This document shows positions 1,782-36,421 of a stretch of DNA of 64,000 nucleotides, piece after piece; position 1 is the first letter of the stretch; the number at the start of each line of letters is the position of its first letter. The notes below the pieces were generated by a model. The model was not told the DNA's origin and did not search any database. It saw only the letters and a list, made by a program, of their open reading frames with translations. This DNA comes from an uncultured bacterium (GTDB lineage Bacteria; Bacillota_I; Bacilli_A; Izemoplasmatales; Izemoplasmataceae). The position numbers and the translations under genes are program-made. Location of the stretch: NCBI GenBank assembly GCA_965601565.1, contig CBFCWG010000003.1:21935-85934 (forward strand), read 5' to 3'.

Positions 1782-2459
1782 ATGAAATATTTTGAATCAT
1801 TTTTCGATGTACTATATCTCATTTCTGTAATTACAGTTTCGGTAATGATTATCAGAAACGGGATCCAAAAACAAAACAAAGCAGCAATTTTATTTGGAGT
1901 TATGGGTTTTCTATTAGGATTTGGTGATTCATTCCATTTAGTCCCTAGAATTATTGGACACTTAACAACTGGTTTAGAAAACTACAAAACTGCCTTAGGT
2001 ATCGGTAAATTAATCACGGGTACTACAATGACAATTTTTTATTACATAATTTATCGTTATTATGTATTACTTACAAACAAAAAAAGCAAATCTGTTCATA
2101 TCACGATAATCTCATTGATGATACTTAGATTCATATTACTTGCCTTACCGGGAAATGATTGGATAAATAATGGAACTAGTTTATTCTATGGAGTCTTACG
2201 TAATGTACCATTTGCAATTATTGGAGGGATTATAGTAACCCTATTCCTTAAAGCAGGAGACAAGGATGTAAATCGTCAATTTTATCAAATGGGTATATGG
2301 ATTATTGTATCATTTGTATGCTACATCATCGTAGTGGTTGGTAGTGGTGCAATTCCAGTTCTAGGAGCATTTATGATGCCTAAAACAGTAGCGTATTTCA
2401 TCATTGTATTCACTGGGTATCAGAATAATGTAAAAAATAATCAAGTTGAATCTATCTAG
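1782..2459 (+). CDS. Hypothetical multi-pass membrane protein
   Basis: About 7 hydrophobic segments, GDSFHLVPR motif; 2 bp after the TetR gene. Confidence 0.75.
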   Translation: MKYFESFFDVLYLISVITVSVMIIRNGIQKQNKAAILFGVMGFLLGFGDSFHLVPRIIGHLTTGLENYKTALGIGKLITGTTMTIFYYIIYRYYVLLTNKKSKSVHITIISLMILRFILLALPGNDWINNGTSLFYGVLRNVPFAIIGGIIVTLFLKAGDKDVNRQFYQMGIWIIVSFVCYIIVVVGSGAIPVLGAFMMPKTVAYFIIVFTGYQNNVKNNQVESI

Positions 2460-2502: not shown

Positions 2503-2617
2503 AAAAAAAGACCTATTTCTAGGTCTTTATAACAACATTTGTCTCGTTATGAACGAGTTTATGTTTTAGATACTACTGTCTTTATAGAAATAATATTTTT
2601 GTATCTATAGAGTTGCA
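2503..2617 (-). repeat. Cassette junction J4 (distal att-like site: arm repeats, palindrome, core, type-A terminator)
   Basis: 36 bp at 2503-2538 identical to 13780-13815 next to tRNA-Gly. 23 bp gtctcgttatgaacgagtttatg (2541-2563) identical to 8108-8130. Arm repeats start at 2577 and 2600. Confidence 0.85.
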
Positions 2618-4098
2618 CTTTATCAATTATCTCAAAGTTATAGTGTAGTTATGACTACTACTTCTAGCATGTTAAAAAATATACTAAAGACTGTCTGTTT
2701 CGATATAAATAGGTCAAATCGTAGCAAATTTTAGATATTCTAAGATACTATTGATAATCCTTATGGTTTTCAATTGAACTATCGTAGATATTCTCAAATA
2801 ATTCTTGATTATCGATAAAAACCTTAAATATTCTACTATCAAAATGTATATCAGTTTCACCAGACATTATCGAAATAGCTTCAACGTGAGAAACACTCCT
2901 CTTATATGGTCGTTTTGATCTAAGAGCATCATAGGTATCTACAATAGCAACTACTCTTGCAGTTAAAGGAGTTTCCTCTCCATGTAGTCCTTTAGGATAT
3001 CCAGAACCATCCCATTTTTCATGATGTGAAAGAACAATATCTAATGCAGCTTTTAAAAAGACATTATCATCTCTAGATATATTTAAAACATCCTCAATTA
3101 CAGATGCACCTACTATTGTGTGTGTTTTCATCAATTCAAACTCTTCATATGAAAGTTTGCATTCTTTAAGTAGAACTCTATCAGGTATAGCATTTTTGCC
3201 AATATCATGCAAAGAACTTGCTCTTGATATACATTCAACTTCTGAAAGAGAAATTTGATCAGAAAAAATCTTTGATTCAATCATTTTTAATAATAAACAT
3301 TTTGTAAGCTCTGCAATTCTCTCAACATGTTTTCCCGTTGTATCATCTCTCAACTCAATAATTTTAACTAAAGATAAAATTGTAGTCATCTGAGCATCAT
3401 TTATTTTTTTACCCTGAGAGATAATCTGCTCGTCCTCTTCTCTTATCTTTTTCGAAAGGAATCCAATAATTTGAGAAATAAAAATAAACAAGAGTAATCT
3501 AATTACCCAATTTAATAAATTTTGAGAAGTACCTGTAGTTGTATTTAATGGCATGAGTGGTCCAAGCAATAATCCAAAAAAAACAGCATGTAATATAGAT
3601 GTCTTTCTTGAAAGCAAAATTGAGATTGCTGAGATTGGAATAAAGAGTAAACTGGGTAAAATGGTATGCGTACCCCCTAGAAAATAAACTAAAACACTTA
3701 AACTTAAAGATACACAATAAATTCCAATAATAACGATTTTTTTATTGTTTCTTCGAGTATAATAATTCAACATAAACAATTCCCCCTTCAAACAAAAGAA
3801 TAATAGAATCCAAATATATATATACGTTAAGAATAATTAATATTTTCAACATTACATTATATAATGTAAACACAAAGTAAACAATACTTTTTGTATAGTA
3901 TTTAACAAAAAATAATGGTGATAATGTACGCTATTAAAAAGTGTAATATTAAGGTCCATGTGGTTATGGATTCATAGAAGGCAACTTTAATGTAGGATTT
4001 ATTAAAAATAATGGAATTACATACTAAATTAAGCCGATTTCCAAAACCGTTAAATAAATGAACTATACAAAAAAAAGACCTATTTCTAGATCTTTATA
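2532..4098 (-). mobile_element. Putative integrase-free gene cassette C4 (HD-GYP), 1567 bp core to core
   Basis: Bounded by junctions J4 and J3. Confidence 0.65.
2748..3773 (-). CDS. Membrane-anchored HD-GYP domain c-di-GMP phosphodiesterase
   Basis: HDIGK and HHEKWDGSGYP motifs, 4 N-terminal TM segments. Likely start is ATG 3773 after RBS AAGGGGGA (ORF track start 3791). Confidence 0.9.
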   Translation of the reverse strand: MLNYYTRRNNKKIVIIGIYCVSLSLSVLVYFLGGTHTILPSLLFIPISAISILLSRKTSILHAVFFGLLLGPLMPLNTTTGTSQNLLNWVIRLLLFIFISQIIGFLSKKIREEDEQIISQGKKINDAQMTTILSLVKIIELRDDTTGKHVERIAELTKCLLLKMIESKIFSDQISLSEVECISRASSLHDIGKNAIPDRVLLKECKLSYEEFELMKTHTIVGASVIEDVLNISRDDNVFLKAALDIVLSHHEKWDGSGYPKGLHGEETPLTARVVAIVDTYDALRSKRPYKRSVSHVEAISIMSGETDIHFDSRIFKVFIDNQELFENIYDSSIENHKDYQ

Positions 4099-4151
4099 AC
4101 AACATATTGCTTGTCATTATGAAGATTATAGTGTGTCATTACGAAGTTGCA
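4069..4151 (-). repeat. Cassette junction J3 (variant att-like site lacking the palindrome)
   Basis: Type-A terminator plus core match J0/J4 at 35/36 bp. Direct repeats tgtcattatga (4112) and tgtcattacga (4134) then agttgca, but only 13 bp from the core instead of 45. Confidence 0.75.
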
Positions 4152-4502
4152 TTTTAAATGGCAAGATTAGAGATTCCTCCAAAGCCTAATCTCTTAATGG
4201 ATTAAACTAGAATATAGGAAAATGGTAGAGTTCTATCATCCATACTCGTATCATTACACATAGATTTAGATGCTACTCTAATAAAAATATTTGCACTAAA
4301 CCCAAACATTTATCCTTTTTTCTAGATAAAACTCATTAGCCAGTTCCTTCACAGTCAGTGTAATAATAGTGCATGCTATAGAGTTTTTAAGTCCGTGATT
4401 TTCTCATACTAACCAAGCTATTACTTTCAACTTGTAAGATAGCCACAACATATTGATTAAACTTATTCAATATATTACAATAAAGAAAAGGAGGGATAAA
4501 AC

Positions 4503-4841
4503 TTGCAAAATGAAAGCTCTGATAAAATAATGAAGTATAACTCTATAGTAATAAATAACATCTATTTTTTCGAATCTCACAGACGAGGTGTTAATGCTTT
4601 CTTAAAAGGTAGTTCGGTACCTGTACCTGATTCTCTTAACACTTTAGCCGAAAACTTTCTTTGTAACGGATTTATTCAGATAAGTAAATGGTGCATTGTA
4701 AATATTAACCATGTGACTGATTTAAAGGTTAGACTCAATTCACAAATTGATTTAACCCTTAATAATAAAACAGTTGTAACAGTGAACAGAACATATATAA
4801 AAGGGTTCAGAAATTATCTTAGAAAGGGGACAAAAAAATGA
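4503..4841 (+). CDS. Stand-alone LytTR DNA-binding domain protein
   Basis: FIQISKWCIVNINHV and TVVTVNRTYIK resemble LytTR motifs; TTG start with RBS GGAGG; no receiver domain. Confidence 0.65.
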   Translation: MQNESSDKIMKYNSIVINNIYFFESHRRGVNAFLKGSSVPVPDSLNTLAENFLCNGFIQISKWCIVNINHVTDLKVRLNSQIDLTLNNKTVVTVNRTYIKGFRNYLRKGTKK

Positions 4842-5560
4842 GAATATTTGCCTATTTAGTATTGTTTGTACTTTTTTTACCAACATTTATTTTTGCCTAT
4901 ATGTTTTTTAAGAGATTCTATTATGTTAAGCTATTAAACAATTATCGAAAAAAAAGATCAGTAAAGAATGTGGGTTTCTTCACAAGTCTCTCTAATATTC
5001 GAAAAACCTTGTTTTGCATTTTAATACTAATATTATACGTTTTATTGTCACCAAATATTTTTGCGCTAAGTACTTCATTAAATTATAATGATTGTCCTTC
5101 TAGTGACAACTCTTTACAACTTTATGAACAAGGAACTAATCTACTTATAATTCATATAAATGAGTTGGTTGAGGTTAAAGATTTTAACCCTTTCATTGAG
5201 GGACACACTCCAACAAATAAATTATTTTACGAGTTCTCAGTTTTAGAAAATCTTGACGATAATGATGTTCACTCAAATAAATTATTGACAAACCAACCAG
5301 TAAGCAACTTTCAGTGGAGTGAGAGTACGTGTAGTAATCCAAATAGTGAGATTGCTACAGGTCGCACATACATAGCAATATTAAAGTATAGAGAACCAAA
5401 CATAGAATTCCAAAACAGTGATCCAAGATTAATTAAAAGGGACGATTATGTTATAATAAACATTATTGATATTAGCTCATATGATGATACATTGGACCCT
5501 TTCACTCAGGACATGCCTGTTCAAAGTGTTATTAATGATTATCTAATTCTTTTGGAATAG
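4838..5560 (+). CDS. Hypothetical membrane-anchored protein with extracytoplasmic domain
   Basis: Two N-terminal hydrophobic segments; 4-bp ATGA overlap with the LytTR gene. Confidence 0.7.
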   Translation: MRIFAYLVLFVLFLPTFIFAYMFFKRFYYVKLLNNYRKKRSVKNVGFFTSLSNIRKTLFCILILILYVLLSPNIFALSTSLNYNDCPSSDNSLQLYEQGTNLLIIHINELVEVKDFNPFIEGHTPTNKLFYEFSVLENLDDNDVHSNKLLTNQPVSNFQWSESTCSNPNSEIATGRTYIAILKYREPNIEFQNSDPRLIKRDDYVIINIIDISSYDDTLDPFTQDMPVQSVINDYLILLE

Positions 5561-5561
5561 A

Positions 5562-5600
5562 AAATAAAAGGGACCCCTTTTCTAAAGGGTCCTTTTATTT
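5562..5600. terminator. Bidirectional intrinsic terminator
   Basis: aaataaaagggacccc-ttttctaa-agggtccttttattt between convergent genes. Confidence 0.75.
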
Positions 5601-6225
5601 AATCACTATGTTTATTATTAAATGTTTCTAAGTTATCAATTACTTCTTTTACTTTTTGCCTTACTATAAGATTCTGATTCTTTACTGGATTATTTGGACT
5701 ATAAGATTCTAGATCTATTAATGTTCCTGGTCTTCCCCAATTCTGATATACACCTTCAAAAAGTCTTGAATCTACAGATATCATGTCATCACTAGGTTGA
5801 GAACAAAATAGTATCATAACTTCTCCAACTTGCGGCAAATCAAGAGAATAATCATACAAGACTAATTCCTCATTTTCATAACCTCCATAATAAAAAACGT
5901 CGATTATCTGGTCAAACTCACCTTTTATTGATTTGTGAACTTTAACTGTATAATGTGTAATTGGAATATTTCTGTTACTCAACGTATCATCTTCATTTTT
6001 GATATACGTTGCTTCAATACTCAATATCTCTCCAACAAAAATTTCATTAAACACTTCATAAGGGGTGTCTTTTTTGCTCCAATCAATAAAATAACTGTCT
6101 TCAGTAAGTACTCTATTCACCTTTATAGCGTCAAGTTCATCTTTTTTAGATTCAAAAGCAACTAGAAAAACTATTGAAACACTAATTGCCAAAAATGTTA
6201 CTAATATTAGAATTTTAGATTTCAT
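5599..6225 (-). CDS. Hypothetical exported/membrane-anchored protein
   Basis: N-terminal signal/anchor, acidic beta-rich domain; 4-bp overlap with the upstream peptidase gene. Confidence 0.7.
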   Translation of the reverse strand: MKSKILILVTFLAISVSIVFLVAFESKKDELDAIKVNRVLTEDSYFIDWSKKDTPYEVFNEIFVGEILSIEATYIKNEDDTLSNRNIPITHYTVKVHKSIKGEFDQIIDVFYYGGYENEELVLYDYSLDLPQVGEVMILFCSQPSDDMISVDSRLFEGVYQNWGRPGTLIDLESYSPNNPVKNQNLIVRQKVKEVIDNLETFNNKHSD

Positions 6226-7241
6226 TCATCCCACTTCTCCCTATAAACATCACGATCACAAGGTCCAGGTGAATAAATGTATACGGGGGCTACACCTTGC
6301 AACATTGCATTATAGTCACTTTCATTACTCAATTGCGAACTCCAGTTTGGATTAAAAAACGCCTTAGTCACACTATTTTCATCCATATTAATACCCAAAG
6401 AGTGTCCAATTTCGTGAATAATTGTTTTTGTTTTACCAATATCATTACCCCAATAATCATCCCAAAAAGCAACATTAGTTTCACCCTCAAAAAAGTAAGT
6501 GTTAAAATAAATCAAATCATGAAAAACAGGTCTATAATAATAATATGCTACAGCATAAGAAGAAGCTCCTGCATCATCCTCAAAATAATCATAAAAATGC
6601 AAATCCTTCACAGTTGAAGAAGTATCAGGAGTTATTGTAATAGTATCAAGTTTATTCCATTCACTTATTGCATCATTTATCAATACAGCATATAAGGAGT
6701 TCACATCATAATGAACTTTCTTACCACCGTCAACTGCATTATAAATAGAAAGGTAGTCATCAGGATCATATACGCACTCACATGAATCCAAGAAAACGGA
6801 GTAACTACCATATGAGGTATAATAATATCCATCTATCTTAATATAGTAAATTTTTCCATACTCTGCATAAAACTCTGTATAGAAATTTGGCTCACTCGCA
6901 TAATGTGTTCCCGTTTCATAAGCATCATTGTTATATGCAATCGAGGTTGACAAATTTGTAGACTCATATACATAAACTTTAGTATTTGTTGTTCCTGTTG
7001 AATAAACCGATACTGGTACATCTCTTGTTGGAACAAATCTTAACCAGTCAACATCACTTGTACTTTCAAGACTGCAGTCAACGTCTCCATCAAGGTAAAT
7101 TGACTTATAATTGGATGATGAACTACCACATAAATCAGGTGGTGTTGGTTCATCGGGTCTCGCAAAAACGCTCATATCAGTTGTTAAAATCATTACAAAA
7201 AGCAGACAAACTGTTGTTATCGATAAAAATATCTTTTTCAT
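6222..7241 (-). CDS. Secreted zinc metallopeptidase-like protein (PPC-like domain plus metzincin-like domain)
   Basis: Signal peptide, DVDWLRF...Y..I.I beta-sandwich region, HEIGHSLG motif followed by a Met-turn-like AML. Confidence 0.65.
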   Translation of the reverse strand: MKKIFLSITTVCLLFVMILTTDMSVFARPDEPTPPDLCGSSSSNYKSIYLDGDVDCSLESTSDVDWLRFVPTRDVPVSVYSTGTTNTKVYVYESTNLSTSIAYNNDAYETGTHYASEPNFYTEFYAEYGKIYYIKIDGYYYTSYGSYSVFLDSCECVYDPDDYLSIYNAVDGGKKVHYDVNSLYAVLINDAISEWNKLDTITITPDTSSTVKDLHFYDYFEDDAGASSYAVAYYYYRPVFHDLIYFNTYFFEGETNVAFWDDYWGNDIGKTKTIIHEIGHSLGINMDENSVTKAFFNPNWSSQLSNESDYNAMLQGVAPVYIYSPGPCDRDVYREKWDE

Positions 7242-8060
7242 AATTCTCCTTTCAAAATATAAGTCATTTAATATCTAAATTTGTATTCTACATAATTTGA
7301 TACCCCTCAATATAACCACCTCCCATTCAACTTCAGTAAAATAAAAAGATTCTACTAAATCCATTTACAAAAATTTCCAAACAATAAACAAAAAAAACAA
7401 GCATACCTATTAATTATACCTGTTTCTTCACTGATGTCCCTTACATAGGTTTCATATTTTCATCTTATCATTAGTAAAAAGATTTGTAAACCAAATTAAT
7501 TGCCTACATGTATTTACATCTTTCAACACTAAGTGTTCTACTTAACTTTCTTAAAACTAATAAAACAGACCATCTAGATTGGACAACTTATTAACATTGA
7601 AAGTGTTCGTTGTCAGTAAACAACTTCTCATAGGGAAAACTATTATCATTGATAAGTTCAATAATGTTGTCATCAAAGAACTATGTCTTGTACTTACTTC
7701 ATAAAAATAATTTCTTATTTAATCTGTAAGGAAATCAAGATAGCTTATCTTTAGATTCAATAGATTTTTGCCACATTCATTGATATGTTATTAACTGAGG
7801 AAAGTACATCTTAATAAGTCAAAAAAGGCTTTACTTGAGTTACTGAAGATTAACAAGCCAATTCTCTATTTGCCTTGTAGGTAGGGTACAACTAAATATG
7901 TAAATACTTCTGAAAATACTATAACAAATAATACTAAGATATCTGAAAATACTTTTTTTCTCGATCACATCAGTATAAAACTGATTTACTGGAAATATTA
8001 CCTTCGATTCACCTTTACACCTTTCTTTTAATCGCAATAGGTAAAATATCTATATAATAC

Positions 8061-8184
8061 AAAAAAAGTTTATTTCACTTGGAAATAAACTTTTAATTAC
8101 AACATATGTCTCGTTATGAACGAGTTTATGCTATTAACACCGTTGTCTTCAAAGGAAGATTGATGCTGTCTTTATGGTGTTGCA
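8061..8184 (-). repeat. Cassette junction J2 (complete att-like site, type-B terminator)
   Basis: Core acaacat at 8099, palindrome ctcgtt-atg-aacgag at 8110-8124, arm repeats at 8144 and 8167. Confidence 0.85.
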
Positions 8185-8438
8185 TCAATCATTGGTAGTA
8201 TTGTATTAAAAAGAAGCCAATATCTAGCTTCTTCAACTTTTATTGATTATTAGTCATATATCATTGAACGATCACTAATAAACTCAACCTATTCATTTCT
8301 CATTATTTCTTTAACATCTTTATATATTGATTCTTAAGTCTCTTGAAGGTTATTATATATACTTCTTTTTTTTTCTGTTTTTTTATAAAGACTTACTCTT
8401 TAATTACAAATCCATACGTTTAATCATCAGATATATCA

Positions 8439-10028
8439 TCAATTAAGTAAATTCTTCTTCTTGCCTTTATCTTGGTACATTTGTTGATCGGCAAGACTAA
8501 CAAGGTAATCAATAGTAACTTCATTATCATTAATTGCAAATCCTATAGAAACATCTACAAAACAAGTAACATCGTCAAAAATAAACTCTTTCTTTATTTC
8601 ATTTTGAATATTAATCATAATTTTTTTTATATTTTTTTCGTTATCAACATCTTTTAAATAAATCAAAAATTCATCTCCACCTAGCCTTGCAACAATATCT
8701 GTATCACGTAAACATGATGATAATCGATTTGCTGTTTCTATTAGTAGTAAATCCCCGATATTATGACCATAATTATCGTTAACCTTTTTAAATCCGTCTA
8801 AATCCAGATATAATATCGAAAATATATCATTTCTTTCTTTTAAAATATCTAGTTTGGTAAAAATACCTTTTCTATTAATTAAGTTAGTTAAGGAATCATG
8901 CGTAGCAGTGTATTCTAATATTTCTATTCTCTGTTTTAAACTATATGTTAGTTCATCTAATAACTTTGATACCGGAATGATAACAATTGAAAATATAATA
9001 AATATAGTGAAATACATATTCCTTTGTGTAACAACAACATCTGCTGAGTTTAAATTAACACATCCCAAAATAAATATATCTCCGTTATCAGAATATATAC
9101 CAATATCTCGATTGACTAAATCGGTAATAGCATTCTCAATCTCAGAATTACTAATACTTAAATACGTAACCAATGAATCATTAAACTTTTTCTGTAAAAC
9201 TTCTCCATTGGATACAATCGAAAAATCAATATCAATTCCATGCTTATTATATACAGTATTATCCTCTTTGTCATCAAACATAAATCCAAATTCCAAAGAT
9301 TCATCTTGATTATGCAAATAATATCCATCCTGATTAATAACTTCAAAATTTGCATATTCTGATTGGTTTGTATCGTAGTCATGAAATAAATTTACTGAAT
9401 AATAATTTATGATCAACAATCCAATTTTCTCATTCTCACTATTATAAAGTGGTGTCGCAATTCTCAACATTTGCTTTGGAACATCATTTATATACTCAAC
9501 TTCATCATTTTCAACATTTAAATCTATCTTACTTAAATAAATATAATCATCATCTAAAGCAATTGCATTTTCAAAATAATATCGGTTTGACTTATTTTGC
9601 AATTCCTCAGTTTCAACAAAAATTGGAACTCCATCTTCATTATTAATTCTCAATACTTCCATACCATCTAAACCAATAATTCTGATTTGATCATAGTCTT
9701 GATGAGTCTCCATCCAATCATATAGATCATCTTGAAGTTCCATTTCTTTCTCTTCACTTGAAAATACTATTGTTGATTCATCTAGAACAAGCACTTCCTT
9801 ATTTGATATAATATCATCCATTAATAAGATATTAATCCCTAATCGAACAATATGTTCATCAATATTTACAGCATAAGCTTCAATATCCGTAATTACTTTT
9901 TCACTAATACTTCTCTTTAAAGCAGTCCTTTGTGATAAGTAAACAATGATAAAAATTAAAAAGAAGACAGAAAACATGAAAATTAAATACTTCATCCCAT
10001 TCTTTAAACTTCTATATTTTAAAATCAT
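8439..10028 (-). CDS. Cache-type sensor diguanylate cyclase
   Basis: TM-extracytoplasmic domain-TM then GGDEF (ARLGGDEF) with I-site RDTD. Likely start is ATG 10028 after GAGGTGG (ORF track start 10061). Confidence 0.9.
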   Translation of the reverse strand: MILKYRSLKNGMKYLIFMFSVFFLIFIIVYLSQRTALKRSISEKVITDIEAYAVNIDEHIVRLGINILLMDDIISNKEVLVLDESTIVFSSEEKEMELQDDLYDWMETHQDYDQIRIIGLDGMEVLRINNEDGVPIFVETEELQNKSNRYYFENAIALDDDYIYLSKIDLNVENDEVEYINDVPKQMLRIATPLYNSENEKIGLLIINYYSVNLFHDYDTNQSEYANFEVINQDGYYLHNQDESLEFGFMFDDKEDNTVYNKHGIDIDFSIVSNGEVLQKKFNDSLVTYLSISNSEIENAITDLVNRDIGIYSDNGDIFILGCVNLNSADVVVTQRNMYFTIFIIFSIVIIPVSKLLDELTYSLKQRIEILEYTATHDSLTNLINRKGIFTKLDILKERNDIFSILYLDLDGFKKVNDNYGHNIGDLLLIETANRLSSCLRDTDIVARLGGDEFLIYLKDVDNEKNIKKIMINIQNEIKKEFIFDDVTCFVDVSIGFAINDNEVTIDYLVSLADQQMYQDKGKKKNLLN

Positions 10029-10362
10029 ATTTTCCACCTCTTCTATATCCTTTAGTACCATGTTTTTAAGACGATTACTTATATAACAGATAATGTTGAA
10101 TTATTTGAACTTCCATATATACTTTACCATATAGTGTAATAAAGAAATCGGAGTTCCTAAACTGTAACAAGAGAGATAACTAACTCCAATTACCAAAACG
10201 TTATGCAACACCTTTAGGTGATTTTATTAATATAACCTTATCATATTTTATTTGTAAATTCTTATGTAACTGCACATGTAATATCCTGATCAAGTAAATC
10301 ATTTTCTTCTGTCTTATGAAGAAATAAATTTTACATTTATTATACATAATCTATCTTATTCA

Positions 10363-12465
10363 CTAAGTTTTCATGGATTCCTTTTGCATATAATCTAGCA
10401 ACTCATCTGTACTTAACTCTTTAGAAAAGTAGTAGCCTTGAACATAATCTACACCAAATTTTTTACATAAAGTAAATGTTTTTTCATCTTCTACACCTTC
10501 AACTATTATTTTGTATCCCAAATCCTGAACTAACTTCACAATGTTCTTAAATAATGATTTATCACCATTATCTGTTAATAAAGAACTTGATAAATTACTA
10601 CTAATTTTAACAGCGTCGAATTTTAGTTTTGCCAAATAATTCACTGAACTGTATCCTTCACCAAAATCATCAACATAGAACTCAACATTATTTGATCTTA
10701 AAGTTTGAATTTTATCAACAATTGAAGTTAAATCCTGAACTACTTGCGTCTCAGTAACTTCCATTGCCAAAAATCCACCTTCAACTTTTGAAACTTTCAA
10801 CATCTGTAATATATCGTCAACAAAATCTTCATAAGAAAGGCTTATAGCACTAAAATTAACTGAGTAAAAATAATCATTTGACGAAATATTCCTAATTTTT
10901 TTTGCAACTTCAAGTGTGTTGTGCAAAACAAGTTTATCCAATAAATATATTTTGTAGGTCCTCTCAAGTAAAGGTATAAACTCTCCAGGGGAAATATTCC
11001 CATAAACATCATGATTCCATCTTGACAACGCTTCAAATCCATATACTGCAAGTGAGTCTACTTCAATAATTGGTTGATATACCGTCCTAAACTTCTTAGA
11101 TTTTATAGCTTCATCTAATTGCAGTTCAATTGTATTGCTGCGAGTGTATTTTGATAGTAACTCATTACTAAACACCACCCACTTTTTATGTTTTAGACTC
11201 TTTGCACTCAACAAGGCTAAAATACTATACGATAACAACTCATCTACATCTTTACCATTATCAGGATACTTTGATACTCCTATTTTCACACTAACATTTA
11301 TCTTAGTATAGTCTTTTATATAGGGTTTCTCTAATTTCTCAATCAAATTATCCATAAAATTTAACGGTCCTGTTTGATCGCAATTCGCCAATATCAAGAA
11401 GTCATCTTTGATCAACTTAAAAACCTCACAATTATCAGGAATAATTTTCTTAATTCTTTCTGCCATTTCTTTTATAATAAACTCTGCAGTAGGTTCTCCA
11501 TATAATGTTTTGATAGCCTGAAACTGTAATATATCAATATAAACTAGTTTAAACTTCCTAAATGAATCCGTAAATTCTTTAAATGCAATTGGTAAATACG
11601 CTTTACTATATAGCCCTGTTACAGAATCAAAATATGCAATCTTTTCTAATTTTTCCTGACTCTCCACTAACTTATTATAAAGCATCATATTCGGACTAGA
11701 AATGGAGATATCTAGAAAATAAATTAAAAAACTTACAGATGAAATAAACCTAAATATATGACCCATGAAATTAGTAAAATCACTAGTGCCTATATATAGG
11801 GTAAACATAAACTCCGATATGATAAAGAAAAAAATATAAAGAACTAGAAATTGTAATCTTTTATTTTTCATTGACTCCAATCTAAATACTAAGATTAATG
11901 ATAGTATAAGTATCCCAATAATCACGTACTCACTAACAATCTTAAATAGAGTTAACCCCTCACCGTCAACATACATTGTCGGAAACCACCTTGTAAATAA
12001 AGTAAAATACAAAAAAACTATAATAATTAAGAAATAATTACTTATAGTGAAATGCCATTTCGGTTTGGCAACTATTTTTTGTAAAAAGATTGCAGCTAAA
12101 ATTGTAGAAGACTGAACAAAGCGGCCAATAACCCAAAATTGAGTTGATAAATTGGGACCATATGATATAAAATGAGTTCCACCTTCATATGCAAGTATGT
12201 GAACAACATCAATCATTACAATAAAAATAGACGAAATCCCGATTAATGCTATAAAGAACTGACCTTTTGCATATTTCCATATTGTGACTGTAATAATAGT
12301 AACACATATGAAACAGACAACAGAAGCTAATTCTATAATTGAATGGTATAAATAGTAATCATATTTAGCTAATATCGACATTAAAAAATACAGAAGAAAA
12401 ATAAATAGTATCAAAACTCCAGACATTAAAGTGGTCTTTCGATTCTTATACACTTCTTTTAGCAT
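10363..12465 (-). CDS. MASE3-like membrane sensor, degenerate GGDEF, EAL phosphodiesterase
   Basis: About 8 TM helices with the H..IEL / FW.IGR pattern. GGDEF motif degenerate (LIKDDF). FEALSRW and DDFGEGYSS intact. Likely start 12465 (ORF track 12504). Confidence 0.85.
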   Translation of the reverse strand: MLKEVYKNRKTTLMSGVLILFIFLLYFLMSILAKYDYYLYHSIIELASVVCFICVTIITVTIWKYAKGQFFIALIGISSIFIVMIDVVHILAYEGGTHFISYGPNLSTQFWVIGRFVQSSTILAAIFLQKIVAKPKWHFTISNYFLIIIVFLYFTLFTRWFPTMYVDGEGLTLFKIVSEYVIIGILILSLILVFRLESMKNKRLQFLVLYIFFFIISEFMFTLYIGTSDFTNFMGHIFRFISSVSFLIYFLDISISSPNMMLYNKLVESQEKLEKIAYFDSVTGLYSKAYLPIAFKEFTDSFRKFKLVYIDILQFQAIKTLYGEPTAEFIIKEMAERIKKIIPDNCEVFKLIKDDFLILANCDQTGPLNFMDNLIEKLEKPYIKDYTKINVSVKIGVSKYPDNGKDVDELLSYSILALLSAKSLKHKKWVVFSNELLSKYTRSNTIELQLDEAIKSKKFRTVYQPIIEVDSLAVYGFEALSRWNHDVYGNISPGEFIPLLERTYKIYLLDKLVLHNTLEVAKKIRNISSNDYFYSVNFSAISLSYEDFVDDILQMLKVSKVEGGFLAMEVTETQVVQDLTSIVDKIQTLRSNNVEFYVDDFGEGYSSVNYLAKLKFDAVKISSNLSSSLLTDNGDKSLFKNIVKLVQDLGYKIIVEGVEDEKTFTLCKKFGVDYVQGYYFSKELSTDELLDYMQKESMKT

Positions 12466-12652
12466 AAACATATACCCCCTTAAGACCATAATTAAATAAA
12501 TCATTCTTATATATATATATTCTATCAGATAATAGAGTTTAGTTCAATTTTTTAACATGTTTAGAACTATTATGAAAAAATTATATTAAATGTGCTAAAT
12601 TAAAGTTGAAATAGCCGATTCCCTAAATCGCTAAATAAAGCTTCTATATAAT

Positions 12653-12777
12653 AAAAAAGTCTATTTCTGTTATTGAAATAGACTTTTAATTACAACATAT
12701 GTATCGTTATTATTGATTTTATGTCTCAAATATTACTGTATTTATAATGGTACTATCATTGTATTTATGGAGCTGCG
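12653..12777 (-). repeat. Cassette junction J1 (complete att-like site, type-B terminator)
   Basis: Core acaacat at 12692, imperfect palindrome atcgtt-att-attgat, arm repeats at 12737 and 12760. Confidence 0.8.
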
Positions 12778-12783
12778 TTCGCA

Positions 12784-13704
12784 TTAATTTAGTACGTGCA
12801 ACCATAATTTTTCAGATTCCAAAACTAAATCTGATACTATTCTTATAAATTTAGTATAGTCAGTTGTGGTATGAGCTGTATCTAATGCATCATAATACTC
12901 TAAACGATTTTCTTTTTTGATAACTATTGGTGGATATCCATTTCGCATAAGCTCAAAATTCAATAACAACCTTGCAGTTCTCCCATTCCCATCAATAAAT
13001 GGATGGATTTTTACGAATTCCCCATGTAACAATGTTGCTTTCACAATAGGATGGTATTCACTCCAACTAGTTTTCATCTCATATACTAGTCTCTGCATTT
13101 GATCAGGGACTATTATATGACTTGGAGGAATATGTTTTGCACCACTGATTAGTACATTTTCATTACGGTATTTTCCTGCGTTTACATTATCAATATCTTT
13201 TAGTATTAATTGATGAACGCTTTTAACATTCCGTTCTGTCATAGTTTCATTCTTATCTAGTAAAGTTTCAATGAACAATATAGCCTCTTTATGATTAATT
13301 GCTTCTAAATGTTCAATAATACTCTTTCCTCCAATAGTGATTCCTTCTAGAACAACCTTGGTTTCTAACATTGTTAATTTATTCCCCTCAATAGCATTAC
13401 TATTATATGTCCACTCAACAATTAAATTGTCTCTAAGAGTTTTAGCCTGTGTCATCTTCAAAGGTCTATGTGCATCAATTTCTTCTTTCAATGTTGTATG
13501 TTTTGAGAAATCATATTCTAATCCTTGATAATCTATGATAATCTTTCTACGATTATCAACTGGTTTTTTTGCATCAGAAGGAATAGACCAATTTCTACCA
13601 ATTTTTAAAGCACCTTCAATTTTCCCTTCAGTGCATAGAACTCTTATCCTTCTATCTGATAACCCCCATTTCAACCCAGTTTCTTTTGAAGTTATGTATT
13701 TCAT
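12784..13704 (-). CDS. Fic family AMPylase with N-terminal HTH
   Basis: HPFIDGNGRTAR active-site motif, SNAIEGN inhibitory helix, N-terminal HTH (WGLSDRRIRVLC..G.I.GA.K.GRNW.IP). Confidence 0.9.
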   Translation of the reverse strand: MKYITSKETGLKWGLSDRRIRVLCTEGKIEGALKIGRNWSIPSDAKKPVDNRRKIIIDYQGLEYDFSKHTTLKEEIDAHRPLKMTQAKTLRDNLIVEWTYNSNAIEGNKLTMLETKVVLEGITIGGKSIIEHLEAINHKEAILFIETLLDKNETMTERNVKSVHQLILKDIDNVNAGKYRNENVLISGAKHIPPSHIIVPDQMQRLVYEMKTSWSEYHPIVKATLLHGEFVKIHPFIDGNGRTARLLLNFELMRNGYPPIVIKKENRLEYYDALDTAHTTTDYTKFIRIVSDLVLESEKLWLHVLN

Positions 13705-13721
13705 CTAATCACCTCATCTAC

Positions 13722-13739
13722 ATTATATACCGATATCGG
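13722..13739 (-). promoter_or_regulatory. fic promoter -10 box with adjacent palindrome
   Basis: TATAAT (13722-13727, minus strand) and CCGATATCGG (13730-13739). Confidence 0.5.
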
Positions 13740-13777
13740 AATAATAGCAAATATAAGAAGTGAAGAAAATCATTAGC

Positions 13778-13816
13778 AAAAAAAAAGACCTATTTCTAGG
13801 TCTTTATAACAACATA
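13778..13816 (-). terminator. tRNA-Gly terminator, which is also junction J0 of the cassette array
   Basis: Minus strand: TATGTTGT TAT AAAGACCTA GAAA TAGGTCTTT TTTTTT immediately after the tRNA CCA. Confidence 0.85.
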
Positions 13817-13890
13817 TGGAGCAGGTGAAGGGAATCGAACCCTCACAATCAGCTTGGAAGGCTGAGGTTCTACCATTAAACTACACCTGC
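13817..13890 (-). tRNA. tRNA-Gly (TCC)
   Basis: 74 nt GCAGGTGTAGTTTAATGGTAGAACCTCAGCCTTCCAAGCTGATTGTGAGGGTTCGATTCCCTTCACCTGCTCCA; anticodon loop CTTCCAA, T-loop GGTTCGATTCC, encoded CCA. Confidence 0.97.
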
Positions 13891-13935: not shown

Positions 13936-13996
13936 ACATACTAATTGTTGTTTCAAGTTCATCTTTATAAAAGATTCACTTCACCGACATAAAAAA

Positions 13997-14070
13997 TGGA
14001 GCAGGTGAAGGGAATCGAACCCTCACAATCAGCTTGGAAGGCTGAGGTTCTACCATTAAACTACACCTGC
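13997..14070 (-). tRNA. tRNA-Gly (TCC), identical second copy
   Basis: 74 nt identical to 13817-13890. Confidence 0.97.
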
Positions 14071-14090
14071 ATTTTCAAGTCAGCATAAGT

Positions 14091-14119
14091 ATAATATCAT
14101 AAAGAGAATATCAAGTCAA
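14091..14119 (-). promoter_or_regulatory. Promoter of the tRNA-Gly copy at 13997
   Basis: TTGACT (14114-14119), 17 bp, TG-n-TATTAT (14091-14096). Confidence 0.65.
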
Positions 14120-14137
14120 TACACTTGTATCAATTTT

Positions 14138-15061
14138 TTACAATTTTTTAACTGCACGTAATTTAGCACTGTGGGCTCGGTTATTATGTGCAAGTTCTTC
14201 TTCACTTGGTAAAATTACTTTACGATGAAGTAACTCAAAATCCGGTTTAATATCCGGCATCATTGGCACGTTTTTAGGAATATTGATTGTTGTTTTCTCA
14301 CGCATAATTGTTTTGGCAATTCTATCTTCTAAGGAATGGAATGTAATTACAACAATTCTTCCGTCAGAATTTAATAAATCAAATGCCTGTTCTAAAGAAT
14401 CTTCAAAAACTCTCAACTCATCATTCACAGCTATTCTTAGAGCTTGGAAGGTTTTCTTAGCAGGATGACCTTTTTTATTTAATATCTTTTGTGGTAAAGA
14501 ACTCTTAATTACATCTACTAGTTCAAATGTGTTTTTTATTCTTTTATTTTCCCTTACCTTCTCAATTTTACGAACAATCATTTTCGCATTTTTTTCCTCA
14601 CCATATCTAGTTAAAATACGCATCAGATCATTAAATGAATACTCATTAACAATTATTTCCGCAGTTAATTCCTGATTTTGATTCATTCTCATATCAAGTG
14701 GTGCATCATAATTATAGCTAAAACCTCGTTCAGGAATATCGAATTGGAATGATGAAACTCCTAAGTCATATAATATCCCATCAACCTTATCTATACCTAT
14801 TTCATTTAGTCTATCTTTTATGTTAACAAAATTACTTTTGATAATTGTATAATTCTTGCTCAATTTATCTAATTTCTCAGTGGCTCTACTAATTGCGTAA
14901 TCATCTTGATCAAAAGCATATAAATGTCCAGAATTTAATCTTTTCAGGATTTCAAAAGAATGTCCACCTCCACCTAATGTGCAGTCGACGTAAATTCCAT
15001 CTTCTTTAATATCTAAGTAATCTAAACTTTCATCTAATAGAACTGATATATGTTTATACAT
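14138..15061 (-). CDS. rsmH: 16S rRNA m4C1402 methyltransferase
   Basis: [48 protein letters not shown] motifs. Confidence 0.97.
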
Positions 15062-15897: not shown

Positions 15898-17040
15898 ATG
15901 AAAACAGTTGGAATCATTACTGAATATAACCCATTACACAATGGTCATATTCATCATATTAAAGAAACAAGACGATTAAGTAAATGCGATCGTTTAATTT
16001 GTGTGATGAGTGGTAATTTCACTCAACGTGGTGAACCGGCAATTATCGATAAGTTCACGAGAACTAAATGGGCTTTAAATAATGGTGTTGATTTAGTAAT
16101 AGAACTCCCCTTTGTCTTCACTGTTCAAAATGCTGATATTTTCGCATATACCAGTGTTAGTATCCTTAACCATCTAGGAGTAGATGAAATCTATTTCGGC
16201 AGTGAAACAAACAATATAGAAGAACTAGATAAACTTGGCAACATTATGTTAAGTGAAGAATACAATAAACTTGTAAAAGAGTATTCAAAACAAGGTAATA
16301 GTTATCCTACTAGTAGCGATTTGGCAATGAAAGATTTATATCCTTCAACCGCTTTTGATTTACCTAATAACATTTTAGGTATCCAATATTTACTATCAGG
16401 TAAGAAACTTGTATCTAATATAGTCTTCAAAACAATCGCTAGACTTAAAACAAATTATTTTGACGAAGAAGTTAAGGAATCAAACATTCAGAGTGCAACT
16501 ACTATTAGAAAACTTGTAAAAGAGAATAAAGATATTAGTAACTATGTCCCTACCGATGTTAATGATACACTTCGATCTAGGAAACTAATCAGTTACGAGG
16601 ATTACCTTCCAACACTTAAATATATCCTTAGAAGTTCTACCAAAGATGATTTAAAAGATATATTTAATATTAATGAAGGATTAGAAAACAGAATCTTAAA
16701 GCAAAAAGACTTTGATTCAACTCAGGAATTAATCAATAAACTTTTAACAAGAAGATACACAAATTCAAAAATCAAAAGATCTTTAGCACACATCTTATGC
16801 AATACTAAAAAATCACTAATTAAATCATTTGATATCCCCTATTTAAGAATCTTGGGTATGAACAAGATTGGACAAGCTTACTTAAGTGAAATCAAACATG
16901 ATTTAAAGGTTCCATTAATCGCCAAAGTTAGCGAAGGAATCCATCCGTATTTAGATGCAGAAATTAGAGCTTCCAAAGTTTACAGTTTAGTAAGTGATAA
17001 GGACGTTTTTAAAGAAGAATTTAAGCAGCCAATATTTTAG
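15898..17040 (+). CDS. tmcAL: tRNA(Met) cytidine acetate ligase (YlbM family)
   Basis: GIITEYNPLHNGH, MSGNFTQRGEP, PNNILG, SATTIR; divergent from yceD as in Bacilli. Confidence 0.88.
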   Translation: MKTVGIITEYNPLHNGHIHHIKETRRLSKCDRLICVMSGNFTQRGEPAIIDKFTRTKWALNNGVDLVIELPFVFTVQNADIFAYTSVSILNHLGVDEIYFGSETNNIEELDKLGNIMLSEEYNKLVKEYSKQGNSYPTSSDLAMKDLYPSTAFDLPNNILGIQYLLSGKKLVSNIVFKTIARLKTNYFDEEVKESNIQSATTIRKLVKENKDISNYVPTDVNDTLRSRKLISYEDYLPTLKYILRSSTKDDLKDIFNINEGLENRILKQKDFDSTQELINKLLTRRYTNSKIKRSLAHILCNTKKSLIKSFDIPYLRILGMNKIGQAYLSEIKHDLKVPLIAKVSEGIHPYLDAEIRASKVYSLVSDKDVFKEEFKQPIF

Positions 17041-21017: not shown

Positions 21018-22721
21018 CTATTCTTCATACTTCACAATCACATTGACATATGAATCATCAAAAACTGTAATCTCTAATTCCTCATCAACAGTATATGTAA
21101 TATCTCCTGATTTAAACCCATTCATGAGTACTAAATAATCTGAGTGAGTAAAGTTTGTCATTCTTGATAAATCAGAACTTATTGCCACACCTTGATTTGC
21201 GATTTCAGCAAATAAAGCCTGTCCTCCATTCCAGTTACCAATGAAGTTTTGAGTTAAATATTTCTCAGCTAAAAAGCCATAGTTTCTAAATACAGAAGTT
21301 AAAATCACATCACTAGTATCAAATATATCTGAGTCTGCATTTATGACTAAACCATCAGTAGCTTCTGCAGCTTCAATTAATGCTTCATCTAATGCAACTG
21401 TGAAGATTACCTCTGTCCCACTTTCATACCACTCTTTCGCCTTGTTAACTACTCCATAATCGTAAATAAAAGCATTTGCATAATGATATTTAATAACTAC
21501 ATCTATTCCTAGTTCTTCAGCGGCATACTGTGCCCCTGCAATAAATCCATACCCTTGTAATCTAATTGGTGGAATATCCATTGCACCGATAAATCCTAAA
21601 TCTACATGACCATTTTTAACAGCTAAATACCCAGCTAGGAATCCCACATCTGAAAAATTCATTTCAGCAGCAATAGTATTTGCGCCTGCCCCTTCATATA
21701 GTAGTTCACCATCTATTGTATCTTCCTCATTGCCTTGCCAATCACTATTAGAAGGAATTCCATCTAAGAAGATTAACTTAACATTAGGATAATTTTTTTG
21801 TGTAAGATATGCAACATTTACAAATGGCCATCCAACAATAACTATTGTGTTTGCCCCATCTTCAATTGCGCGATCAATTAGTTCCATACTTTCAGTAACA
21901 TCAAATGATAAAGATTTTAATAGTGTAAGTTCAGTATCTTCATCATAATTAGCTATATAACTATTTATTCCATCAAGTACTAGTTCATTTGATGGTTGAT
22001 CAATAGTAAGTTCAGGTTCATTTAATAGTAAAGCTATATGAACATTAGGTAATTCCCATTTAGCGAATAAATCAACAGGCTGATCCAACATTGTGAATTC
22101 ACCTTCAGTATATACATGTGAACCTAACATCCACCCTAAGAAGTTATAACCATCTTTTTCAGGTGTTGGTAAATCTACTATTTCACCTTCATATGCCTCT
22201 AACTCAGAGTATACATTTAAACCATCATGCAATAATAACTGGTTCAGTTGTAACCATTCTGCATAAACAACTGTATCAATAGTTATTGATGTTTCCTCAA
22301 ATTTATTTATAAAAGATTCCTCAGTAAACCAACCATTAAAAACGTATCCATCTTTTTCAGGTGTTGGTAAAGTAAACTCCTCATCAGCTTCTAAATCAGT
22401 TATCTCAGTTGAATCTTCACCATCATTAAATGTAATTGTAAATACCTCAATCCATTTAGCATATAATGTAAATCCTTTTGATTGATACATCTCATCTTTA
22501 GCCATTGTATCAACACTATTAACTAAATCTTCAGTAACATACCATCCATCAAACAAATATCCTTCTCTTATTGGTGGTTCAGGTAAAGTTAAATCATTGT
22601 TATCTTCAACTGTAATACTTTTAATTTCATTTCCACCATTTGATTCAAATGAAACAGTAAAACTTCGCGTACAACCAGTTAGAAGTACTAAAAGAACTAA
22701 ACTAATGAATATTTTTTTCAT
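21018..22721 (-). CDS. BMP family substrate-binding lipoprotein with 3 InlB B-type (Listeria-Bacteroides) repeats
   Basis: Lipobox LLTGC, P.(R/K)(E/D)GY.F.GW repeats x3, BMP domain (GFLAGYLA, GFIGAMDIPPI). Confidence 0.8.
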   Translation of the reverse strand: MKKIFISLVLLVLLTGCTRSFTVSFESNGGNEIKSITVEDNNDLTLPEPPIREGYLFDGWYVTEDLVNSVDTMAKDEMYQSKGFTLYAKWIEVFTITFNDGEDSTEITDLEADEEFTLPTPEKDGYVFNGWFTEESFINKFEETSITIDTVVYAEWLQLNQLLLHDGLNVYSELEAYEGEIVDLPTPEKDGYNFLGWMLGSHVYTEGEFTMLDQPVDLFAKWELPNVHIALLLNEPELTIDQPSNELVLDGINSYIANYDEDTELTLLKSLSFDVTESMELIDRAIEDGANTIVIVGWPFVNVAYLTQKNYPNVKLIFLDGIPSNSDWQGNEEDTIDGELLYEGAGANTIAAEMNFSDVGFLAGYLAVKNGHVDLGFIGAMDIPPIRLQGYGFIAGAQYAAEELGIDVVIKYHYANAFIYDYGVVNKAKEWYESGTEVIFTVALDEALIEAAEATDGLVINADSDIFDTSDVILTSVFRNYGFLAEKYLTQNFIGNWNGGQALFAEIANQGVAISSDLSRMTNFTHSDYLVLMNGFKSGDITYTVDEELEITVFDDSYVNVIVKYEE

Positions 22722-36297: not shown

Positions 36298-36421
36298 GTA
36301 TGTAACTCCTCCTTGAAAATAAAAAATCTCAATTGTGTATTGAGATTTCATTTATTATTTTATATCCCAATATACTATATCTAAAATTATACCAAAAATA
36401 ATAGCTTGTTTAAACACTTTC

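Follow-up and report, generated by a model that had tools for sequence, protein, structure and literature searches.

The window analysed here, a stretch of 64,000 nt from contig CBFCWG010000003.1 of an uncultured member of the Izemoplasmatales, contains an array of four recombinase-free modules that lies between a tRNA-Gly(TCC) gene and the gene at 1782-2459 and spans 11.4 kb. We give about an even chance to the reading that this array is a product of site-specific recombination and that its modules are cassettes mobilised in trans. Site-specific recombination is argued for by an empty native site, an exact 36-bp duplication, breakpoints that fall on one nucleotide, chimeras of blocks and terminators, and multi-site repeats that are confined to the junctions between the modules. 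The position after tRNA-Gly looks like a gene-capture hot spot of the whole lineage.

The tRNA-Gly(TCC) gene at 13817-13890 is the anchor and the attB-side partner of the array. Read in the direction of the tRNA, the tRNA-side junction is ...CTGCTCCA T ATGTTGT TATA AAGACCTAGAAATAGGTCTT TTTTTTT, with the CCA of the tRNA being followed by a single base (T), the core ATGTTGT and an intrinsic terminator. On the plus strand this core, ACAACAT, is present at 2532, 4099, 8099, 12692 and 13809, and a hairpin with a T-run follows each of the five cores in the tRNA direction. Both observations had been made in an earlier note on this DNA and were confirmed, as were the unit lengths of 1117, 4593, 4000 and 1567 bp that it had derived from them. 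The heptamer ACAACAT is by itself frequent (31 copies in the window versus 17.5 expected in a sequence of 30% G+C), and the significance of the five sites is their context, not the heptamer. The 36-mer AAAAAAAGACCTATTTCTAGGTCTTTATAACAACAT at 13780-13815 recurs exactly at 2503-2538 and with one mismatch at 4070-4105, just as the note had it; the insert is flanked by direct repeats, one of which lies at the 3' end of the tRNA (36 bp, starting one base past the CCA), in the manner of the attL and attR sites of genomic islands. A direct-repeat search of the window identified a 65-92-nt repeat family at precisely the junction positions. The scan with a junction profile that the note had proposed was run on the 64 kb with nhmmer and matched only the junctions of this locus: the four distal junctions from which the profile was built gave E values of 1e-26 to 1e-33 and the tRNA-side half gave 2e-9, with no other match in the window below E 0.5. 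As the profile matches are restricted to the locus, chance or a generic heptamer was ruled out as origin of the junctions.

The junctions are real, local and chimeric, one family of blocks being joined to differing terminators. Terminator A is found at 13809, 4099 and 2532, terminator B at 12692 and terminator C at 8099; B is related to C, and the stem is kept in A, B and C through differing sequences. The tRNA and two blocks are thus joined to the same terminator type, and these different combinations point to exchange between blocks and terminators. The copy of terminator A at 2503-2531 is identical to the tRNA-side copy and would be the native terminator of the tRNA, displaced by insertion. 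Weak terminator scores were also obtained on the plus strand, at 2543-2557 and 8110-8124, for the junction palindrome plus the TTTATG.T after it, so that the junctions may stop transcription in both directions.

The block is ~85 nt long and forms together with core and terminator a junction of ~130 nt. Within the 64 kb it is confined to the four distal junctions, the remaining 52 kb holding no additional copy of the kind that a dispersed REP- or MITE-like terminator repeat would scatter through the genome. On the plus strand ACAACA is followed by a dinucleotide (TA in four junctions, TT at 2532), by TGTCTCGTTATGAACGAG, a palindrome with a 6-bp stem, and then by TTTATG, ~12 nt, a first direct repeat (TGTCTTTATAG-like), 12 nt, a second direct repeat, N and GYTGCA. 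The block is made up of a hairpin, a pair of 11-bp direct repeats (TGTNNYTAYRR) that lie 22-23 bp apart, and TTGCA. The window has four matches to the paired-repeat pattern TGTNNY.A...-N9-13-TGTNNYTAYRR, every one at a junction, and the same 11-12-nt motif occurs once more, inverted, in the core and terminator A (TGTTGTTATAAA, minus strand). The centre of each junction therefore reads ...ACA^TA^TGT... (carets mark the borders here and below), with the copies of the motif facing outward. Of the earlier claim that a conserved block precedes the four distal cores and is absent on the tRNA side, only the palindrome needs correction: the block at 4106-4152, referred to as block 3', is shortened and has no palindrome, retaining the two repeats TGTCATTAYGAAG and the TTGCA after them. 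The blocks next to the perfect 36-bp repeats are only 74% identical. A decayed tRNA copy was rejected on inspection as the origin of the block, as the hairpin resembles a T-arm only superficially and the acceptor end is absent. The motif GCTTTATTTAGCG after the terminators recurs in the window and in the related contig L041, but is too weak to build on.

To the right of the tRNAs the window holds housekeeping genes (rsmH, yceD, a tmcAL-like gene, mrp, MATE, nth, dnaD, rnc, plsX, recG, fakA and others). The window's RsmH is at most 84% identical to anything on record, the named relatives being Candidatus Izimaplasma/Izemoplasma. In Izimaplasma HR1 (CP009415; locus L037) the same gene order extends to two tRNA-Gly genes, after which CCA AGTTGTTGATAAAAGACCTAGAAATAGGTCTTTTTT is directly followed by OsmC, pyrophosphatase and MgtE genes, and the hairpin found there is terminator A of the window. 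The loci L137 and L138 are likewise empty after tRNA-Gly, and L039 and L136 have CCA TATGTTGT and a variant of terminator A at this position. By the empty sites in HR1 and L137/L138 and the same core in L039 and L136, core and terminator A are ancestral chromosomal sequence, as would be expected of an attB, at a site that can be empty. Two comparisons suggested in the note, for an empty site and for variable content, hence turned out in its favour: HR1 and L137/L138 have tRNA-Gly and the same terminator without an insert, and the gene content at the site differs in each relative examined, while the flank from RsmH to tRNA-Gly is conserved. In L136 the gap between tRNA-Gly and OsmC is filled by a TetR gene, an alcohol dehydrogenase gene and the gene of a branched-chain amino-acid transporter, the last of these with a T-box leader in front of it (11515-11750; 141 bits in Rfam), and there are no att-like repeats.

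Comparable recombinase-free units with tRNA-end-like junctions are present on three other contigs of the clade, L041, L126 and L039; with the window included, four genomes have 10 such units, their lengths being 1.1-5.6 kb. Of the relatives with usable sequence, L041 has the closest RsmH (82%). Here, the contig's own tRNA terminator is repeated after a 1385-bp unit (7166-7216 and 8551-8601, 92% over 51 nt), a 5.6-kb unit comes next, and both units end in a ~200-nt block of another family (8359-8554 and 13939-14135). After the second of these blocks the sequence TGTGTAAATTAAAAGTTTATTTC... is a homologue of the window's core and terminator C (14135-14175). L126 starts inside tRNA-Gly and continues with a Fic gene (80% identical to that of the window), a window-type block (77% identity) and terminator B, then with an open reading frame (ORF) of 563 aa and an L041-type end (...ATATAATCCA^TATG... 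plus L041-type terminator), and finally with two small ORFs and another L041-type end (...AAACAACCCA^ATAA... plus A-like terminator), so that a window-type block and two L041-type unit ends are combined within one array. L039 carries one unit of 1186 bp with a DUF1295 gene between ...CTCCA^TATGTTGTTAAAAGACCAGAAATGGTC and ...AATCCA^TAAAATGTTCAAAGACCAGAAATGGTC, bracketed by a terminator duplication at 11212-11265 and 12398-12451. All these junctions follow one rule, a unit end ...(C/A)CA, then (T/A)A, 8-12 nt, a hairpin and a T-run, as after the tRNA, and about a dozen junctions of the four genomes share one breakpoint position (...CA^TA...). The L041 block starts T-arm-like (GGGTTCGATACCC), contains three GGGGTGYAAAA repeats and ends in ...CATACAACCCA^. 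In L041 we also observed three TACACGATT repeats, 20 bp apart, ~110 nt past each terminator (7323-7393 and 8692-8742), and a 39-nt repeat (ATGCACTRCYAYGAAAAAGTGGGACAC.TTCCCCCTCCC; 14170-14208 and 16471-16509) with which two ORF-like regions downstream of the array begin and which may be a shared N-terminal or leader module.

The uniform breakpoint bears on the possibility that the units were exchanged by RecA-mediated homologous recombination after DNA uptake, as in minimal mobile elements, with no site-specific enzyme being involved. The junctions offer homologies of 36-130 bp in direct orientation, the content varies next to a conserved RsmH-to-tRNA-Gly flank, and the native-like composition of the units would agree with exchange within the lineage. 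In about a dozen junctions, however, similarity breaks at one nucleotide with the block side being unrelated, which is typical of site-specific events; moreover, the internal repeats of the blocks resemble multiple protein-binding sites, and the right-hand homology that double crossovers would use differs between genomes. We therefore consider homologous exchange an improbable source of the array.

Which enzyme could act on these sites was addressed by domain scans of nearly all ORFs of at least 120 aa across the window and of the small ORFs of non-coding gaps. The scanned ORFs of the 64 kb contained no domain of a recombinase or transposase, which bears out the earlier statement that none is visible in the window. 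Integrase remnants hidden in non-coding gaps or ORFs of unknown function were ruled out in the same way, with no match to any Pfam, NCBIfam or PHROGs family, and the 10 units of the four genomes likewise gave no recombinase match in Pfam, NCBIfam or PHROG. None of the units in the window, L041, L126 or L039 carries an integrase of its own, as islands at tRNA genes do.

These negative results have to be set against the main rival explanation, which holds that complete integrative elements (phages, integrative and mobilisable elements (IMEs) or integrative and conjugative elements (ICEs)) accumulated at the end of tRNA-Gly and lost their integrase and most of their genes. The remnants would then be immobile and would be cis-mobilisable elements (CIMEs) in a historical sense only. 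Most arrays of this kind are documented to have arisen by tandem accretion with subsequent decay (PMC5704250), and tycheposon islands show the same pattern with remnants. In line with this, the base composition is fully ameliorated, block 3' is truncated, and the Fic unit is of old age, with a core that has decayed in L126. On the other hand, all 10 units in four genomes, including every tRNA-proximal one, are devoid of an integrase or a fragment of one; the units are compact, with promoter, intact gene or genes and block, and contain little pseudogene debris; and the perfect 36-bp repeats next to blocks of 74% identity argue for recent or continuing exchange. As no unit anywhere carries the enzyme, its supply in trans is more economical than ten independent decays, and we rate decay of complete elements as fairly unlikely.

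The age of the Fic unit was estimated from its relatives. A Fic gene follows the tRNA-Gly pair in L043 and L044 as well, with 72-74% protein identity and 78-83% nucleotide identity to window positions 13753-13361, and the divergence of the tRNA-adjacent Fic proteins (80% identity in L126, 72-74% in L043/L044) is comparable to that of RsmH (79-84%). By this measure the Fic unit is old, has stood beside tRNA-Gly since before these lineages split, and is effectively fixed. The earlier proposal that the newest cassette adjoins the tRNA is contradicted by this housekeeping-level divergence in L126 and L043/L044. L126 is also at odds with its companion, that each terminator arrives with the unit downstream of it: there, Fic keeps the block and terminator B, and the genes beyond that terminator are unrelated to unit 2 of the window. 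Given this conservation of terminator B in front of unrelated genes, either some crossovers take place away from the core, or the next unit has an ancestral start behind which the cargo was exchanged. The array is thus a mix of old and younger insertions and not a simple newest-first stack.

In L126 the core has drifted to ATTATAT, with matching changes in its partner in the hairpin, which leads to the question of structure. Folding showed that the first four bases of the core (ATGT) pair with ACAT upstream of the palindrome and lengthen the hairpin. In an alignment of three window copies with the L126 block, a structure of 10 pairs is 92.5% paired and three of its pairs are kept by changes on both sides, a result reached in 5 of 500 shuffles and in no slid register; with four sequences, the covariation of the block hairpin is suggestive. 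RNA folds of two block copies have z values of -3 to -5, and RNAalifold detected no conserved fold apart from the terminator. In Rfam only the two tRNAs of the window pass the gathering thresholds, and at E <= 5 nothing that overlaps a block was near the gathering score of its family, the sole overlap being Yfr19 at 8051-8125 with 27.3 bits versus a threshold of 70; a known RNA family or riboswitch, e.g. for cyclic di-GMP (c-di-GMP), was ruled out by this lack of Rfam matches.

These folds raise the alternative that the block is a transcribed 3'-end module, i.e. a 3' untranslated region (3' UTR) with terminator and possibly a platform for protein or RNA binding, which is located behind signalling genes and was copied from one gene end to another by occasional recombination or gene conversion and not by a dedicated cassette system. 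Three of the four blocks lie between a stop codon and the terminator (7 nt after the stop of Fic, 130 nt after that of HD-GYP and 254 nt after that of GGDEF), L126 has kept Fic, block and terminator B as one transcription unit, and the hairpin that includes the first core bases, its three compensatory changes (the 5 in 500 shuffles) and the z values of two copies would all suit an RNA element. What such a module leaves unexplained are the exact copies of the tRNA core and terminator at 2503-2538 and 4070-4105, the empty sites, and the arrays of L041 and L126 with unrelated blocks. Block 3', furthermore, is located outside any 3' UTR, Rfam and RNAalifold yielded no match and no conserved fold past the terminator, and the covariation comes from four sequences only. 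We judge this alternative to be unlikely.

The direct repeats could also be regulatory. In LytTR sites, 9-bp repeats are separated by 12-bp spacers, and the arrangement DR1-12 bp-DR2-TTGCAY on the plus strand (DR, direct repeat) might be an activator-dependent promoter, e.g. for the LytTR regulator of unit 3, that directs transcription of the LytTR operon and antisense transcription into convergent genes. The pair of 11-bp repeats, about two helical turns apart, abuts a -35-like TTGCA(T/C), plausible -10 boxes are located 18-20 nt downstream in two or three copies, and unit 3, with one block upstream, encodes a LytTR protein and its membrane partner. Against this, three of the four copies have nothing downstream to target but the antisense strand of a gene, a promoter-like site at 4453-4481 lies nearer to the LytTR gene, the pattern is absent from all other intergenic regions of the window, and neither the duplicated tRNA terminator nor the arrays in relatives are accounted for, which makes a promoter function highly improbable as the explanation of the repeats. 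None of these three rivals (3'-end module, homologous exchange, LytTR promoter) explains the duplicated tRNA terminator and the empty sites together.

Returning to site-specific recombination with mobilisation in trans, several results weigh against it. Neither the 64 kb nor the related arrays (5-10 kb) yielded a recombinase, and the junctions are not accompanied by any candidate for one. Outside the window the window-type block was found only once, in L126. It is absent from the 36 loci (L001-L036) that match the exact 19-nt pattern ACAACATWTGTNTCGTTAT among 185,579 species genomes, all of which are single chance matches, as well as from 80 RsmH loci, viral contigs, and phage and plasmid records; a phage or plasmid origin of the junction was rejected, with no blastn match and three pattern scans of viral contigs returning chance matches only. 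The comparators are other species (RsmH at most 84% identical), and no circular form, reordered cassettes or strain-level presence and absence were seen among them; exact-protein look-ups of two flanking genes and of three close RsmH relatives gave no match. The combination of Fic, block and terminator B in L126, with its drifted core and the compensating changes in the block, agrees with a fixed structured element no less than with a crossover site that is active. L136 carries its three extra genes at the same spot with no repeats whatever, and the hot spot is accordingly filled by more than one mechanism, not by cassettes solely. Finally, base composition and third-position G+C content (GC3) of all units are the same as in the rest of the genome, and foreign composition was excluded for the units.

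The note had stated that no description of such an architecture was known to it. This does not hold, as arrays of recombinase-less, att-bounded units at one site are known from CIMEs and tandem accretion (PMC5704250), pseudo-SCC (staphylococcal cassette chromosome; PMC4651549), tycheposons (bioRxiv 10.1101/2020.12.28.424599) and integrative mobile elements exploiting Xer (IMEX; PMC5357621). CIMEs are decayed ICEs or IMEs that accreted with a related, integrase-bearing element (PMC5704250). Like CIMEs of the ICESt1/ICESt3 type, the modules described here are free of integration genes, bounded by att-like sites, arranged head to tail at one tRNA-linked site and in principle mobilisable by the integrase of another element; all four are bounded by core junctions and contain neither recombination nor transfer genes. 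In contrast to CIMEs, they are of gene-cassette size (1.1-5.6 kb) and more numerous than usual, the four arrays show no partner element or integrase, the repeat takes in the terminator, from past the CCA onwards, instead of part of the tRNA, and repeats and hairpin are present on one side only. Among the loci retrieved (the 36 pattern-matching genome loci, RsmH loci, phage and plasmid records and viral contigs) there is no integrase-bearing ICE or IME with this block.

In SCC arrays cassettes, some of them without ccr, are likewise inserted serially at a fixed site by an RNA-modification gene, with short att repeats in between, the anchor being the 3' end of rlmH where that of our locus is tRNA-Gly next to rsmH. 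SCC elements have short att repeats (~15-20 bp) within rlmH, and their recombinases, the serine enzymes CcrAB/C, are known and usually encoded in one unit of the array. Here, by contrast, the site is a composite of ~130-200 bp with direct repeats and hairpins, and no recombinase was found. Tycheposons of Prochlorococcus share serial integration by a tRNA, older elements pushed inward, att repeats and cargo-bearing degenerate remnants with our locus, but have their own tyrosine or serine recombinases and repeats of a partial tRNA, whereas the locus has no recombinase and repeats only the terminal CA/CCA.

With integrons the array has in common small recombinase-free cassettes with one site each at the end, a single orientation and a fixed platform, and the conservation of the site may be partly structural, as the covariation of the hairpin indicates. 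It differs from them in having no intI, attI or Pc and in using a tRNA end as platform. The junctions fold into the 6-bp hairpin extended by ACAT/ATGT and the terminator, the core GTTGTWA does not match GTTRRRY on inspection, and an attC-like R''-L''/L'-R' fold with RYYYAAC/GTTRRRY boxes, which is not present in these folds, was ruled out. Integron cassettes are mostly promoterless and expressed from Pc; here, the cassettes have promoters of their own, a conserved one in the case of Fic, and every junction contains an intrinsic terminator. The distinction from integrons drawn in the note (sites not attC-like, no integrase in the window) is thus supported.

The best functional analogy are IMEX and dif modules, in which recombinase-free modules are arranged in tandem via the host's XerC/D. 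No 11-6-11 dif-like site is present at the junctions, whose dyad has a 3-nt centre and different arms, and a 22-nt Bacillus-type dif probe gave no match at <=3 mismatches. GC skew is negative across the whole window without a change of sign, and the site is located inside the conserved rsmH-recG housekeeping block; a dif/Xer site was ruled out by the missing match and the position away from the terminus. The locus would also resemble single-strand elements of the IS200/IS605 type and their non-autonomous derivatives, the palindrome-associated transposable elements (PATEs). The features in common would be a single orientation of all units, the lack of terminal inverted repeats and of target duplication, insertion directly 3' of a short sequence that is mimicked by the right end (CCA/ACA plus T), and a subterminal hairpin at either end, with the lagging-strand template as the active strand. 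Unlike in this family, the hairpins of the two ends have unrelated sequences, the cargo greatly exceeds that of PATEs and TnpA/TnpB are missing. Tn7-like (TnsB-family) transposons have TGT...ACA termini with several subterminal transposase sites, a 5-bp target duplication and tnsABC genes. In the junctions (...ACA^TA^TGT...) TGT motifs are repeated towards the block, and one copy lies inverted towards the terminator; there are no tns genes, the register of the duplication is ambiguous, and L041-type ends (...CCCA^TA) have no TGT tips.

The array would have been built by recombination at a short site right after the CCA of the tRNA, ...CA^TATGTTGT followed by the terminator hairpin. Purely by inference, we picture each module as a circle whose attachment site would consist of block, core, terminator and left arm, and which a recombinase encoded elsewhere in the genome would insert at, or excise from, the tRNA-proximal or any internal core, with the repeated TGT motifs serving as its binding sites. 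Tyrosine integrases are the usual users of tRNA ends and are the default for the class of this enzyme. The covariation of the hairpin suggests a strand-specific enzyme of the HUH/Y1 type or one that recognises structure, and a single-strand, hairpin-guided HUH enzyme would also be compatible with units that all point the same way, have no inverted termini and end in a mimic of the target (CCA/ACA plus T). A serine or DDE enzyme is possible; ...ACA^TA^TGT... with repeated TGT motifs recalls abutted ends of DDE transposons, L041-type ends being without TGT tips.

Going one step further, and only tentatively, the locus may represent an integron-like platform of a new type in the Izemoplasmatales, in which the CCA and terminator of tRNA-Gly(TCC) are the fixed insertion point for small self-expressed cassettes that are handled by one chromosomal enzyme. 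The cassette site would be composite, partly defined by structure, 90-200 nt long and terminated by a mimic of the tRNA 3' end; the enzyme, possibly strand- or hairpin-specific, would insert, excise and shuffle the cassettes, with the arrays being enriched in signalling genes. Should the modules be mobilised in trans, they would constitute a system of cassette arrays that falls under none of the integron, SCC and Xer paradigms, in a lineage placed between Firmicutes and Mollicutes that has received little study, with an unusually rich junction (direct repeats, covarying hairpin, terminator, tRNA-end mimic) and a cargo dominated by c-di-GMP and other signalling genes. As nothing of the tRNA but CA is duplicated and an integrase is absent, island finders based on integrases or tRNA fragments would miss flexible loci of this class. 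If the modules are fossils, the locus would still be a clear example of a tRNA-linked hot spot, of ordinary interest.

Table 1. Positions of the array, its junctions and its flanks in the 64-kb window.
Feature	Position	Strand	Basis or remark
Left flank: 225-aa membrane protein gene that points towards the array and has a bidirectional terminator of its own (2443-2468)	1782..2459	+	
Distal junction 2532: block 4 (2539-2617), core (2532-2538), terminator A (2503-2531)	2503..2617	-	
Unit 4: membrane-anchored HD-GYP phosphodiesterase (2748-3791)	2618..4069	-	Pfam HD_5/HD
Junction 4099: short block 3' (4106-4152), core (4099-4105), terminator A' (one mismatch to A)	4070..4152	-	
Unit 3: LytTR regulator (4503-4841, +); 240-aa membrane protein (4838-5560, +); 208-aa secreted protein (5599-6225, -); 339-aa secreted protein with HEIGH motif (6222-7241, -)	4153..8060	.	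Pfam
Junction 8099: block 2 (8106-8184), core (8099-8105), terminator C (8061-8094)	8061..8184	-	
Unit 2: MASE3-GGDEF-EAL protein (10363-12504); sensor-GGDEF protein (8439-10061)	8185..12654	-	Pfam
Junction 12692: block 1 (12699-12777; GC, two direct repeats, decayed palindrome), core (12692-12698), terminator B (12655-12687)	12655..12777	-	
Unit 1: Fic gene (12784-13704) with own promoter TTGCTA-17-TATAAT (13750-13722)	12699..13779	-	Pfam Fic; promoter scan
tRNA-side junction: CCA, T, ATGTTGT, TATA, terminator A (stem 13784-13805), T-run; no block	13780..13816	-	same hairpin after tRNA-Gly in HR1
tRNA-Gly(TCC), array-adjacent copy	13817..13890	-	ARAGORN; Rfam tRNA, 71.5 bits
Second tRNA-Gly(TCC), upstream copy, no core after it	13997..14070	-	ARAGORN; Rfam

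The positions of all features are listed in Table 1. A block homologous to block 1, together with terminator B, also follows Fic in L126. The spacer of the Fic promoter holds the palindrome CCGATATCGG, which is conserved between -35 and -10 also where Fic is not linked to a tRNA (L127, 9860-9890; L129, 340-370). Fic homologues of 70-73% identity without tRNA linkage and without block have retained the promoter with this palindrome, indicating that CCGATATCGG is probably the operator of an autoregulated Fic gene. A role as recombination arm in the left arm of the cassette was rejected on the same grounds, the palindrome being kept in unlinked Fic genes. Fic belongs to a highly conserved 306-aa family (66-70% identity across many unrelated contigs), and its N-terminus has a weak match to the excisionase-type domain HTH_17 (E 0.0075).

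The gene content of the units is as given in the earlier note, but its description as functionally unrelated has to be modified: units 2 and 4 both serve c-di-GMP turnover, and c-di-GMP enzymes account for three of the seven cargo proteins with a recognisable domain. Apart from Fic, the island proteins are absent from the 80 RsmH loci, and the cargo appears to be accessory in nature. The best homologue of the HD-GYP protein among 5.8 billion proteins is only 48% identical. Based on this distance and on the bracketing by the near-identical copies A' and A of the terminator, unit 4 is the best candidate for a recent arrival.

In unit 3 the LytTR DNA-binding protein (112 aa) is translationally coupled to the 240-aa membrane protein (4503-5560), a pair that resembles the two-gene LytTR regulatory systems of streptococci. 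The two TGTCATTAYGAAG repeats at 4112-4146, upstream of the LytTR gene, could be an operator for it. The 240-aa membrane protein and the two secreted proteins (5599-7241) have no family match, the secreted pair having been compared with Pfam, NCBIfam and PHROGs; the HEIGH motif of the 339-aa protein is that of zinc metalloproteases. The remaining ~820 bp of the unit (7242-8060) are non-coding, with no ORF of more than 65 aa, no Pfam match and no Rfam match near the gathering score of a family.

Elsewhere in the window, a Bmp/PnrA nucleoside-binding domain is joined to Listeria-Bacteroides repeats in two paralogous lipoproteins (21018-22721 and 34579-36351). Three genes for Rce1-like CAAX proteases and one for an M48 CAAX-type peptidase lie within 10 kb (45413-47102, 51327-52058 and 42320-43522), and a second, stand-alone EAL protein is encoded at 47398-49176.

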